This document shows positions 1-6,173 of a stretch of DNA of 64,000 nt, one piece after another. The notes beneath the pieces are model-generated. The model did no database searches. It worked only from the letters and a program-made list of their open reading frames with translations, and was not told the origin of the DNA. Positions within the stretch are counted from its first letter, which is position 1. Each line of letters begins with the position of its first letter. This DNA is from Escherichia coli. GTDB lineage: Bacteria > Pseudomonadota > Gammaproteobacteria > Enterobacterales > Enterobacteriaceae. A program made the position numbers and the translations under genes. The stretch lies in assembly GCF_044324785.1 (NCBI RefSeq), contig NZ_CP172127.1; one strand, written 5' to 3'.

Positions 1-401
1 AAATCCGCCTGCAAGCTGCGCTCATGAAATTCATCAAGGATCACCAATCCAACACCGCTCAGTTCCGGGTCACGCTGGATCATGCGCGTCAGCACGCCTT
101 CGGTAACCACTTCCAGGCGGGTATTCGGCCCGACGCAGTTTTGCGCACGCATCCGGTAGCCAACGGTATCGCCTGGCTTTTCGTTAAGCAGCTCCGCCAG
201 TCGTTGCGCAACGTTACGCGCCGCCAAACGACGCGGCTCCAACAGGATAATTTTCCCGTTAATGCCGGGATGCGCCAGCAGTTGCAGCGGCAGCCAGGTT
301 GATTTCCCGGCCCCGGTCGGCGCACTTAATAACACCTGCGATGCACAATCGAGAGCGGTAAGTAATTCAGGTAAGACGGCAGCAACGGGCAACGACGACA
401 C
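1..401 (-). CDS. hrpB: ATP-dependent RNA helicase HrpB, N-terminal part (gene continues beyond window start)
   Basis: Minus-strand frame from GTG at 401 reads VSSLPVAAVLPELLTALD...LLSAPTGAGKS (DEAH-helicase Walker A); divergent from ligT as in E. coli. Not in ORF track because no stop inside window. Confidence 0.8.
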   Translation of the reverse strand, partial: MSSLPVAAVLPELLTALDCASQVLLSAPTGAGKSTWLPLQLLAHPGINGKIILLEPRRLAARNVAQRLAELLNEKPGDTVGYRMRAQNCVGPNTRLEVVTEGVLTRMIQRDPELSGVGLVILDEFHERSLQAD

Positions 402-474
402 AAAACGCTCCAGAGGGTTAACATTCTTCGCGGCACATTGTAGCATCGCGGTAATTCATAACCGAGTGCCTCAC

Positions 475-1724
<1,250 letters not shown>

Positions 1725-1901
1725 TAGAGTAAGTAACTGGTTAATTTACATTCTGGTCGCGTGCGCAAATACGCTTTTCCTCACACAGTTGTCAAGTGTT
1801 ACGTTTAGATAATTGCTATCCGGAAAAGCATCTGCTATTTATAGCGGCCTCATTTTTCCCCCGAACATGGGGATCGATAGTGCGTGTTAAGGAGAAGCAA
1901 C

Positions 1902-2357
1902 ATGCAAGAAGGGCAAAACCGTAAAACATCGTCCCTGAGTATTCTCGCCATCGCTGGGGTGGAACCATATCAGGAGAAGCCGGGCGAAGAGTATATGAAT
2001 GAAGCCCAGCTGGCGCACTTCCGTCGTATTCTGGAAGCATGGCGTAATCAACTCAGGGATGAAGTCGATCGCACCGTTACACATATGCAGGATGAAGCAG
2101 CCAACTTCCCGGACCCGGTAGACCGTGCAGCCCAGGAAGAAGAGTTCAGCCTCGAACTGCGTAACCGCGATCGCGAGCGTAAGCTGATCAAAAAGATCGA
2201 GAAGACGCTGAAAAAAGTGGAAGACGAAGATTTCGGCTACTGCGAGTCCTGCGGTGTTGAAATTGGTATTCGCCGTCTGGAAGCGCGCCCGACAGCCGAT
2301 CTGTGCATCGACTGCAAAACGCTGGCTGAAATTCGCGAAAAACAAATGGCTGGCTAA
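1902..2357 (+). CDS. dksA: RNA polymerase-binding transcription factor DksA
   Basis: [19 protein letters not shown]... 151 aa with C-terminal C4 zinc finger ([25 protein letters not shown]); start is ATG at codon 7 of the track ORF. Confidence 0.95.
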
Positions 2358-2385
2358 TTACAGCCGTTCCATCACGTTTACCACA

Positions 2386-2414
2386 GGCGGGAAATGCTCC
2401 CGCCTTATTTTTTG
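2386..2414 (+). terminator. Rho-independent terminator after dksA (partial read-through into gluQ expected)
   Basis: GC stem ggcggga/tcccgcc with 5-nt loop followed by ttatttttt; lies 5' of the gluQ ATG at 2424. Confidence 0.7.
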
Positions 2415-2423
2415 TTCAACGAG

Positions 2424-3320
2424 ATGACAGACACACACTATATTGGCCGCTTTGCCCCCTCTCCTTCCGGCGAGCTTCATTTTGGTTCTCTGATTGCCGC
2501 GCTTGGCAGCTATTTACAGGCTCGCGCCCGGCAAGGTCGCTGGCTGGTACGCATTGAAGATATCGACCCGCCTCGTGAAGTTCCCGGTGCCGCAGAGACT
2601 ATCCTGCGCCAGCTGGAACATTACGGTCTGCACTGGGACGGCGACGTTCTCTGGCAATCGCAACGTCACGACGCCTATCGCGAAGCACTCGCCTGGTTAC
2701 ATGAGCAAGGACTAAGTTATTACTGCACCTGCACGCGCGCGCGTATTCAAAGCATTGGCGGTATTTACGACGGCCATTGCCGGGAATTGCATCATGGACC
2801 AGACAACGCCGCAGTACGTATCCGCCAGCAGCATCCGGTCACTCAATTTACTGACCAGCTGCGCGGCATTATTCACGCCGACGAAAAACTGGCGCGGGAA
2901 GATTTTATTATTCATCGCCGTGATGGTTTGTTTGCCTATAACCTGGCGGTGGTGGTGGATGATCACTTCCAGGGCGTGAGCGAAATTGTCCGCGGGGCAG
3001 ATTTGATCGAACCAACTGTGCGGCAAATCTCGCTGTACCAGCTTTTTGGCTGGCAAGTGCCAGATTACATTCATCTTCCGCTGGCGCTTAATCCACAAGG
3101 CGCTAAACTTTCCAAGCAGAATCATGCGCCTGCGTTGCCGAAAGGCGATCCGCGCCCGGTACTAATCGCGGCACTTCAATTTCTGGGTCAGCAGGCAGAA
3201 GCACACTGGCAGGATTTCAGCGTCGAGCAAATCCTTCAGTTAGCCGTCAAAAACTGGCGGCTTACCGCCGTGCCTGAGTCGGCAATTGTAAATTCAACAT
3301 TCTCAAATGCGTCATGCTGA
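2424..3320 (+). CDS. gluQ: glutamyl-Q tRNA(Asp) synthetase
   Basis: [23 protein letters not shown]... class I aaRS HIGH-like motif; track ORF starts at 2394 but that ATG sits in the terminator loop, so 2424 preferred. Confidence 0.85.
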
Positions 3321-3379
3321 GCTATGATTAGCCGCTATTTTTTTGTCCTGAATGATGTTTGACACTACCGAGGTGTACT

Positions 3380-4777
3380 ATTTTTACCCGAGTCGCTAAT
3401 TTTTGCCGCAAGGTGCTAAGCCGCGAGGAAAGCGAGGCTGAACAGGCAGTCGCCCGTCCACAGGTGACGGTGATCCCGCGTGAGCAGCATGCTATTTCCC
3501 GCAAAGATATCAGTGAAAATGCCCTGAAGGTAATGTACAGGCTCAATAAAGCGGGATACGAAGCCTGGCTGGTTGGCGGCGGCGTGCGCGACCTGTTACT
3601 TGGCAAAAAGCCAAAAGATTTTGACGTAACCACTAACGCCACGCCTGAGCAGGTACGTAAACTGTTCCGTAACTGCCGCCTGGTGGGTCGCCGTTTCCGT
3701 CTGGCTCATGTGATGTTTGGCCCGGAGATTATCGAAGTTGCGACCTTCCGTGGACACCACGAAGGTAACATCAGCGACCGCACGACCTCCCAACGCGGGC
3801 AAAACGGCATGTTGCTGCGCGACAACATTTTCGGCTCCATCGAAGAAGACGCCCAGCGCCGCGATTTCACTATCAACAGCCTGTATTACAGCGTGGCAGA
3901 TTTTACCGTCCGTGATTACGTTGGCGGCATGAAGGATCTGAAAGACGGCGTTATCCGTCTGATTGGTAACCCGGAAACGCGCTACCGTGAAGATCCGGTA
4001 CGGATGCTGCGCGCGGTACGTTTTGCCGCCAAATTGGGTATGCGTATCAGTCCTGAAACCGCAGAACCGATCCCTCGCCTGGCTACCCTGCTGAACGATA
4101 TCCCACCGGCACGCCTGTTTGAAGAATCTTTGAAACTGCTGCAAGCGGGCTACGGTTACGAAACCTATAAGCTGCTGTGTGAATATCATCTGTTCCAGCC
4201 GCTGTTCCCGACCATTACCCGCTACTTCACGGAAAATGGCGACAGCCCGATGGAGCGGATCATTGAACAGGTGCTGAAGAATACCGATACGCGTATCCAT
4301 AACGATATGCGCGTGAACCCGGCATTCCTGTTTGCCGCCATGTTCTGGTACCCACTGCTGGAGACGGCACAGAAGATCGCCCAGGAAAGCGGCCTGACCT
4401 ATCACGACGCTTTCGCGCTGGCGATGAACGACGTGCTGGACGAAGCCTGCCGTTCACTGGCAATCCCGAAACGTCTGACGACGTTAACCCGCGATATCTG
4501 GCAGTTGCAGTTGCGTATGTCCCGTCGTCAGGGTAAACGCGCATGGAAACTGCTGGAGCATCCTAAGTTCCGTGCGGCTTATGACCTGTTGGCCTTGCGA
4601 GCTGAAGTTGAACGTAACGCTGAATTGCAGCGTCTGGTGAAATGGTGGGGTGAGTTTCAGGTTTCCGCGCCACCAGATCAAAAAGGGATGCTTAACGAGT
4701 TGGATGAAGAGCCGTCACCGCGTCGCCGTACTCGTCGTCCACGCAAACGCGCACCGCGTCGTGAGGGTACCGCATGA
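3380..4777 (+). CDS. pcnB: poly(A) polymerase I
   Basis: ...[21 protein letters not shown]... [18 protein letters not shown] nucleotidyltransferase motif; annotated start is ATT at 3380 (non-canonical); track ORF opens at TTG 3359. Confidence 0.85.
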
Positions 4778-5253
4778 CAGTGGCGTATATTGCCATAGGC
4801 AGCAATCTGGCCTCTCCGCTGGAGCAGGTCAATGCTGCCCTGAAAGCATTAGGCGATATCCCTGAAAGCCACATTCTTGCCGTTTCTTCGTTTTACCGCA
4901 CTCCACCGCTGGGGCCGCAAGATCAACCTGACTACCTCAACGCCGCCGTGGCGCTTGAAACCTCCCTCGCCCCGGAAGAGTTACTCAACCATACACAGCG
5001 CATAGAGCTGCAACAGGGTCGTGTTCGTAAAGCGGAACGCTGGGGACCGCGTACGCTGGATCTCGACATCATGCTGTTTGGTAATGAAGTGATAAATACC
5101 GAACGTCTGACCGTTCCGCACTACGATATGAAAAATCGTGGCTTTATGTTGTGGCCGCTGTTTGAGATTGCGCCGGGACTGGTGTTTCCTGATGGAACAG
5201 TATTAGGAAATTTATTAAAAATAAATAAATTTCATGAATTAAACAAATGGTGA
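4774..5253 (+). CDS. folK: 2-amino-4-hydroxy-6-hydroxymethyldihydropteridine pyrophosphokinase (HPPK)
   Basis: [35 protein letters not shown]... 159 aa; overlaps pcnB stop by 4 nt. Confidence 0.92.
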
Positions 5254-5600
5254 TTTAATGATTTCATGAATATAAATAAATTCCGAAAAATAACCTTACC
5301 CATTGCAATTAATATATTCCCTAAGCTACAACCATAATTAATATTATATACCCCGCTAACACCTTCTACCTCACATACAATATTTCTTCCGCTTTGTACA
5401 TTAAGCTTTACTTAAAGATGAATTAAGTGGATATATAAATTTAAATATGCACAATATCCCACTTGGTGATGAACAGATGTTACATTCAGTAAATCTTCAC
5501 ATTCATCATTAACAAACCAATCTATTTTTCTCTATCGGGGTTCTTTGTCTGAAAGTACCCGATCGTAGTTAAACTCATGGAATATGATTCAAGGATTATT

Positions 5601-6173
5601 ATGTCTAAAAAATTAGGTTTTGCCCTGTCTGGTCTAATGCTGGCAATGGTTGCAGGTACTGCTTCTGCTGATATGGACGGTGGTCAGATTAACATCAGTG
5701 GCTTGGTTAGCGATAACACCTGTGAAACAAAAGTTGATGGCGGCAAGCAAGATGGCCTGGTTCTTCTGCAAACTGCAACGGTTGCTGAAATTACCGCTGG
5801 TGTATCTGAAACTGCTGTCGGCGCCAAAGCGAAACCGTTTAGCATTACTGTAGACTGCAGCAAAGCGACTCCGGGAGGCCAACCGACTCTGACATTCGGT
5901 TCAGTCTTCTTTGGTAACAGTCGTGGCACTTTGAATAACGATATGTCCATCACCACCCCGTCATCTGGTGTGAATATCGCCCTGCACAACATTGACGGCA
6001 CCACGGTTAAACAAGTCAAAATTAATAATGCATCTGATGCTTACACTAAAGCATTAACCAATAATGTTGCAGTCTTTGACTTCAAAGCCTCCTATGTTCG
6101 TGAAGACAACTCAACACCAGCAACGGCTGGTTATGTAAGAACCAACACAGCTTACACCATCACCTACAATTAA
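5601..6173 (+). CDS. yadN: fimbrial major subunit, YadN-like
   Basis: [23 protein letters not shown] signal peptide, conserved Cys pair, C-terminal ...[13 protein letters not shown] typical of type 1-like pilins; first gene of the yad chaperone-usher operon. Confidence 0.75.

Follow-up and report, generated by a model that had tools for sequence, protein, structure and literature searches.

A leaky Rho-independent terminator between dksA and gluQ and the translation start of gluQ in Escherichia coli

The gluQ gene (gluQRS or yadB) encodes the tRNA glutamyl-Q(34) synthetase, and in E. coli it follows dksA, the gene for the stringent-response factor DksA. Its open reading frame offers two in-frame ATG codons, the first of which is located in the loop of a hairpin that has the appearance of a terminator for dksA. 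This arrangement raises the question of how gluQ is transcribed with such an element in front of it, and which of the two codons is used to initiate translation. We have studied this question in a 64,000-nt stretch of E. coli DNA (hereafter the window), the positions 1-6000 of which were identified by open reading frames and BLAST as the thpR-sfsA-dksA-gluQ-pcnB-folK region. The part between positions 1700 and 3500 is matched by 5424 of the 5426 complete E. coli genomes, and strain N3 is the best match with 99.7% identity. K-12 coordinates were converted by the rule window = 162506 - K-12 coordinate. For the comparison within the family, 80 species-representative loci of Enterobacteriaceae were fetched with the 298-aa GluQRS as the query, giving 81 sequences including the window. 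The genes dksA and gluQ, the terminator and the loop ATG are all on the plus strand. The dksA coding sequence (151 aa, 1902..2357) is supported by its open reading frame and by PGAP annotation transferred from the 99.7%-identical strain; its ATG is at 1902 and its TAA stop codon at 2355-2357, and the preceding sfsA gene ends at 1724. The neighbourhood of the two genes is conserved: in all 79 Enterobacteriaceae loci with enough flanking sequence, dksA lies directly upstream of gluQ, and the distance from dksA to the gluQ ATG varies between 51 and 172 nt.

The hairpin downstream of dksA

The hairpin begins with the 29th nucleotide after the dksA stop codon. It consists of the 5' arm GGCGGGA (2386-2392), the loop AATGC (2393-2397) and the 3' arm TCCCGCC (2398-2404), and an additional stem pair is possible between A2385 and T2405 (stem-loop 2385..2405). 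Directly 3' of the stem, the T-tract TTATTTTTT (2405..2413) contains 8 T in 9 nt. The stem has 7-8 bp with 6 G-C pairs, and the loop comprises 5 nt; base for base, this is the element that the sequence-only reading had described at this distance from the dksA stop codon. The folding of the segment 2386-2414, which had been proposed as a check, yielded a free energy of -14.1 kcal/mol with RNAfold (93% of the ensemble, z = -4.0), and not a single one of 200 dinucleotide shuffles folded as stably. For the stem-loop 2385..2405, the values range from -14.1 to -15.1 kcal/mol with a z of about -4. Among the terminator-like sites in window positions 1-6000, the 2385-2405 hairpin ranks first (8 pairs, 6 G-C). 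As a class, these sites are weakly above chance (11 found vs 6.9 +/- 2.5 in shuffles). Because the generic scan is so weakly enriched, the identification of the terminator rests on the strength of this particular site, on its conservation and on the published RNA 3' ends.

Other potential structures are present in the vicinity. In the spacer between sfsA and dksA, we observed a terminator-like hairpin CTGCTATTTATAGCGG that is followed by CCTCATTTTT (1832-1856). An "orphan" 3' end detected by Term-seq at K-12 position 160652(-) corresponds to window 1854, directly after this hairpin (PMC7815308), and a dksA transcription start site at 160656, i.e. window 1850, is known from SMRT-Cappable-seq (PMC6131387). 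Since the hairpin, the 3' end and the start site coincide, there appears to be an overlap between the terminator of sfsA and the proximal start site of dksA. A small hairpin is predicted by folding across the dksA stop codon (GGCTGGC-TAATTACA-GCCGTT/GCC, 2345-2368), and its minus-strand image was scored as terminator-like; as no convergent gene is present there, this hairpin is probably incidental. Finally, CAUCACGUU (2370-2378) is able to pair with AACGAGAUG (2418-2426), which would enclose the terminator hairpin and bury the gluQ AUG (predicted unpaired probability 0.06). One pair of this long-range interaction needs C2420; K-12 and the other E. coli strains checked have A at this position, and other genera show no evident counterpart of the pairing. 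We therefore treat it as specific to this strain or as a chance pairing.

Hairpins with the core GGCGGG...CCCGCC are kept in about 75 of the 81 Enterobacteriaceae sequences. In an alignment of 43 sequences, the 12-nt core GGCGGG/CCCGCC with its six stem pairs is invariant, while the loop, the T-tract and the flanks drift; four sequences have G-C in place of A-U as the top stem pair, and two have U-A in place of A-U as the basal pair. When covariation was tested with the 43 distinct hairpin sequences, 90.9% of the cells were able to pair as compared to 52-64% if the partners were slid against each other. Double changes were confined to four pairs and 10 cells. The hairpin structure thus seems to be conserved, with thin formal covariation that is supportive but weak: with six stem pairs free of any variation, conservation alone cannot separate a structural from a sequence constraint. 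How T-rich the tract is depends on the genus; the median is 5 T in 9 nt. A weak T-tract (e.g. TTGTTACCGTTG) is found in Enterobacter, Lelliottia and Yokenella, and in these bacteria the hairpin ends 10-12 nt upstream of the gluQ AUG; here, it may act on translation or RNA stability more than on termination. Given the weak tract in Enterobacter and its relatives, efficient intrinsic termination may fail to hold for the entire family. In Phytobacter and Kosakonia-type loci (L027, L028, L032 and L059), the GGCGGG/CCCGCC hairpin is absent and a different, weaker structure is present, as if the terminator had been replaced or lost. The spacer between dksA and gluQ in these loci is about 125 nt long and contains CGGGGAAAATTTCCCG without a T-tract, about 20-60 nt ahead of the ATG of gluQ. 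A broken stem was seen in one metagenome-assembled genome.

Termination, read-through and the source of gluQ transcripts

The hairpin and the T-tract of K-12 are identical to those of the window, and the 3' ends mapped in strain MG1655 can be placed directly on our sequence. Using Term-seq, a 3' end was found at 160097(-), which corresponds to window position 2409 (Adams et al., eLife 2021; PMC7815308). That study reports this end for each of its three growth conditions, with an average read count of 3,097,035 in LB at an OD of 0.4. Its bicyclomycin Rho score of 1.16 and its position outside of the significant Rho termination regions indicate that it is not Rho-dependent, and its intrinsic-terminator score is 7.47 according to the model of Chen et al. 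2013, in which values of at least 3.0 predict intrinsic termination (PMC7815308). DirectRNA-seq coverage at 160097(-) is 250 upstream and 62 downstream of the site (PMC7815308), a ratio that mixes termination and differential mRNA decay. With SMRT-Cappable-seq, full-length primary transcripts were detected that extend from the start sites at 160656 or 161058 to a termination site at 160096, corresponding to window 2410 (Yan et al., Nat Commun 2018; PMC6131387). The 3' untranslated region of dksA, as delimited by the mapped RNA ends, is thus located at 2358..2410, and both ends fall into the U-tract of the terminator. Transcript 3' ends had been expected at about 2412: a very abundant, Rho-independent end in the U-tract was confirmed, and the position has to be corrected to 2409-2410.

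Functional evidence comes from Shigella flexneri 2457T, in which the orthologous element has been studied: the gene order is the same, gluQ-rs has no promoter of its own, and the N-terminus of the protein is at the second methionine (Caballero et al., BMC Microbiol 2012;12:226; PMC3542578). As in the window, the loop contains the first AUG, which is followed by the second one 27 nt further downstream, and the free energy of the hairpin (-14.7 kcal/mol by mfold) is close to that of the window (-14.1 kcal/mol by RNAfold). In S. flexneri, dksA and gluQ-rs are co-transcribed. With plasmid-borne lacZ fusions, removal of the intergenic region resulted in a 10-fold increase and mutation of the stem in a more than 2-fold increase of activity, and a fusion lacking the dksA promoters had only baseline activity (PMC3542578). 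Termination was thus demonstrated in S. flexneri by deletion and by stem mutation, whereas the sequence identity of the window's element was established against K-12.

Altogether, the element combines a G+C-rich stem-loop and a U-tract with, as known from the literature, RNA 3' ends in the U-tract, independence of Rho and an effect of stem disruption. We conclude with a probability of about 93% that 2385-2413 is the Rho-independent terminator of dksA, that it doubles as a leaky internal terminator of the dksA-gluQ(-pcnB) unit, and that gluQ is expressed from read-through transcripts with a start codon at 2424. Based on the 4-fold drop in coverage and the 10-fold effect in the reporter assay, we infer a termination efficiency of roughly 75-90%, bearing in mind that mRNA stability and plasmid context contribute to both of these figures. 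In the proposed mechanism, RNA polymerase coming from the dksA promoters would transcribe the G+C-rich hairpin 2385-2405 and the U-tract, and most complexes would release the RNA at about 2409-2410, resulting in abundant monocistronic dksA mRNA. The remaining complexes would read through and provide the only detected source of gluQ mRNA. Such a leaky terminator would keep GluQRS far below DksA, yet tied to the activity of the dksA promoters.

It is possible to imagine that read-through is actively regulated, i.e. that a protein, a small RNA or a metabolite targets the hairpin, similar to a riboswitch or an antiterminator, and thereby couples GluQ-tRNA modification to growth phase or stress. 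Several observations are compatible with this idea. In stationary phase, the intergenic RT-PCR amplicon was increased 20-fold as compared to 1.3-fold for the dksA and gluQ amplicons, as judged from end-point, semi-quantitative RT-PCR (PMC3542578). For the 3' end at 160097(-), 12-fold fewer Term-seq reads were counted in a second growth condition (PMC7815308), a figure that is not normalised to dksA transcription. Moreover, the sequence of the stem core is invariant next to a drifting loop, tract and flanks. However, the original authors obtained a negative result in their riboswitch search (PMC3542578), a scan of 1700-3500 with the Rfam covariance models (E <= 1) returned nothing relevant, its lone match being a chance snoRNA inside dksA, and the 80 species show no evident conserved antiterminator pairing. 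Regulated read-through is unlikely. It is tempting to speculate that some factor recognises the invariant 12-nt core, so that read-through would be controlled rather than a fixed leak and the GluQ modification of tRNA-Asp would be linked to growth phase or osmotic stress, or that the abundant terminated 3' fragment is itself functional; we give such ideas a rather slim chance. Our literature search for an Hfq-bound small RNA derived from the dksA 3' untranslated region found no report.

Another possibility is that gluQ is served by its own promoter, for instance a sigma-E site that RegulonDB predicts or one in the 3' half of dksA, and that the terminator insulates gluQ from dksA, at least under some stresses. 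The predicted sigma-24 site was noted by Caballero et al., whose work left out envelope stress (PMC3542578), and a transcription start site inside dksA is hinted at by the filter of Adams et al., which keeps a 3' end after a stop codon only if a start site is present at most 200 nt upstream (PMC7815308). The available transcripts argue against this idea: the operon variants seen by SMRT-Cappable-seq are dksA, dksA-gluQ, dksA-gluQ-pcnB and pcnB-folK, and none of them begins at gluQ; every primary transcript that contains gluQ starts upstream of dksA (PMC6131387). Matching coordinates for a start site inside dksA were not found in the Cappable-seq data. Any transcript initiated there would still face the terminator. 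In addition, the fusion devoid of the dksA promoters showed baseline activity (PMC3542578). A motif scan of the plus strand between 446 and 3300 detected no sigma-70-like site, and the scan for sigma-E-like sites between 1900 and 2424 gave no match vs 0.85 expected under strict settings and three vs 4.8 under loose settings, i.e. nothing above chance. A promoter dedicated to gluQ is thus improbable. The S. flexneri fusions, the Term-seq data and the lack of a capped transcript starting with gluQ all bear out the dependence of gluQ on read-through from the dksA promoters that had been proposed from the sequence.

It is very doubtful that the end at 2409 results from 3'-to-5' exonucleolytic trimming back to a protective hairpin, which would make the hairpin an mRNA stabiliser and not a site of termination. 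Stable hairpins do block exonucleases, and the mapped end is just 4-5 nt past the stem as compared to the usual 7-9 nt, suggesting that some trimming takes place. A pure stabiliser, however, would not increase downstream transcriptional lacZ expression if its stem is mutated or deleted. Termination at this site is also favoured by the score of the hairpin with its immediate U-tract, which is well beyond the threshold of the Chen et al. 2013 model (7.47 vs 3.0), and by the 4-fold fall of downstream coverage.

The start codon of gluQ

The ATG in the hairpin loop (2394..2396) opens a 308-aa reading frame (2394..3320), and the next in-frame ATG at 2424 (MTDTHY...), 10 nt past the T-tract, opens a coding sequence of 298 aa plus stop (2424..3320), exactly as first noticed in the sequence. 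The long form is used in the curated K-12 record (NC_000913.3, b0144, 927 nt, 308 aa), and UniProt P27305 is listed as 308 aa. The identity of the gene product is clear from the equivalog models for GluQRS, all of which score above their cut-offs (NF004312, 623 bits with a cut-off of 453; NF004314, 404 with 256; TIGR03838, 380 with 277); the match to the NCBIfam GluQRS equivalogs has an E value of 7e-188. The alignment of the 298-aa protein with PDB 1NZJ/4A91 extends over residues 1-298, but with the GluRS chains of 468-490 aa it is limited to their N-terminal ~250-300 residues. As judged from these alignments, the protein has the composition expected for GluQRS, with a GluRS-like catalytic domain and without the anticodon-binding domain.

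Independent experiments have placed the N-terminus of the protein at the second methionine. Edman degradation of the S. flexneri protein, expressed from a plasmid with a T7 promoter and thus in a non-native context, gave TDTQYIGRFAP, the residues after the second Met of a 298-aa protein that has no obvious Shine-Dalgarno sequence (PMC3542578). Caballero et al. had already remarked on the location of the first AUG in the loop of the terminator and on its absence from E. fergusonii (PMC3542578). Ribosome profiling with tetracycline (TetRP) reported a "new site" for yadB at 160082, i.e. +30 nt (Nakahigashi et al. 2016; PMC4909307), which is window position 2424, and the COFRADIC peptide TDTQYIGR fits this start (PMC4909307). 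In 2026, TRAINSPOTTER N-terminomics detected an "N-terminal truncation (10aa)" of gluQ from 308 to 298 aa with the peptide MTDTQYIGR (PMC13245402). The window differs from K-12 in residue 5 of GluQRS (His instead of Gln) and in position -4 relative to the start (C instead of A). The crystallised YadB protein is the 298-aa form as well, with PDB 1NZJ/4A91 covering residues 11-308 of the long reading frame, and PGAP places the gluQRS start at the equivalent of 2424 in all five PGAP-annotated E. coli genomes that we opened. For 77 of the 80 loci in the comparative set, tblastn homology starts at the Met that aligns with 2424, and for the other three within a few residues of it. The proposal that gluQ truly starts at 2424 is thus supported by protein chemistry, ribosome profiling, structural work, annotation and homology.

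The ten codons in front of this ATG are not a conserved coding sequence, since the loop ATG is confined to Escherichia, homology starts at the Met encoded at 2424 and in-frame stop codons are present upstream. In the 81 species-level sequences, an in-frame loop ATG occurs only three times, in the window and in two Escherichia species. The loop is AATAC in E. whittamii and AATTAC in AF16, a divergent isolate labelled E. coli (94.5% identity), and neither contains an ATG. In one Escherichia species, a 1-nt deletion in the spacer breaks the frame, and in seven species an in-frame stop codon is found just 6-15 nt upstream of the ATG equivalent to 2424.

The accessibility of the two codons is very different. 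Opening of the region from -18 to +12 on the read-through RNA requires 17.9 kcal/mol at ATG 2394 vs 5.3 kcal/mol at ATG 2424. The sole Shine-Dalgarno-like element for ATG 2394, AGGCGGGA, leaves a spacing of only 2 nt to the AUG and itself makes up the 5' arm of the stem (anti-Shine-Dalgarno duplex, -6.3 kcal/mol). ATG 2424 has no Shine-Dalgarno sequence; the corresponding duplex (-1.8 kcal/mol) is about background. Ribosomes thus start at AUG 2424 of the read-through mRNA without a Shine-Dalgarno sequence, in an unstructured U/A-rich stretch 3' of the hairpin, and the U-rich tract upstream of this start may aid initiation. AUG 2394 is exposed in the loop, but with its flanks and AGGCGGGA locked in the stem, so that the product is the 298-aa enzyme.

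The idea that the 308-aa form is real, with translation from ATG 2394 alone or alongside 2424 as in the K-12 annotation and UniProt, is hardly tenable: even though the frame is open from 2394, the AUG is unpaired, the duplex with AGGCGGGA is at about the 5th percentile of the background, the K-12 record uses this ATG and the NF004312 profile reaches a few positions upstream of Met-11, the four independent datasets on the N-terminus or initiation found the second Met only, the Shine-Dalgarno-like element is part of the stem and only 2 nt away from the AUG, opening of the region requires 17.9 kcal/mol, the loop ATG is missing outside of Escherichia and even in E. whittamii and isolate AF16, and most transcripts end 15 nt after ATG 2394. 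Initiation at 2394, which would have spoken against a start at 2424, was thus seen in none of these four datasets, and the use of ATG 2394 is essentially excluded. The 308-aa reading frame is an annotation artefact confined to Escherichia, and it has left traces elsewhere: because the K-12 annotation uses the long reading frame, the dksA terminator was misclassed in the Term-seq study, in which 160097(-) is described as "internal to gluQ, 15 nt from the start codon" (PMC7815308).

Two observations on annotation may be added. The NF004312 profile extends about eight positions N-terminal of the true Met, presumably because some of its seed sequences carry the long form. For the downstream gene pcnB, PGAP places the start at an ATT codon (window 3380-3382, atttttacccgag...), and the program-made list of open reading frames offers only TTG 3359; the ATT at 3380 agrees with the non-canonical AUU start that is known for pcnB in E. 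coli.

Relation to known systems and significance

The leaky terminator between dksA and gluQ and the start at the second ATG are already known: they were published in 2012 and corroborated between 2016 and 2026. The comparison of 80 Enterobacteriaceae species adds that the hairpin is retained in most sequences, that the loop ATG is confined to Escherichia, and that homology starts at the ATG equivalent to 2424. Similar arrangements have been cited by Caballero et al. (PMC3542578). In the rpsU-dnaG-rpoD operon, read-through of the terminator upstream of dnaG sets the low level of the distal gene, and dnaG has an unusual ribosome-binding site; in recA-recX, about 10% read-through reaches recX. 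The genes and sequences of these systems are unrelated to dksA-gluQ, and the likeness may be one of mechanism only.

Our work has a practical side, which is annotation hygiene: the 308-aa start of b0144 and P27305 is still uncorrected, with the misclassing of the dksA terminator as a knock-on effect. For the biology of the bacteria, the terminator explains why a tRNA-modifying enzyme is present at a low level and still remains coupled to the promoters of DksA, the stringent-response factor.
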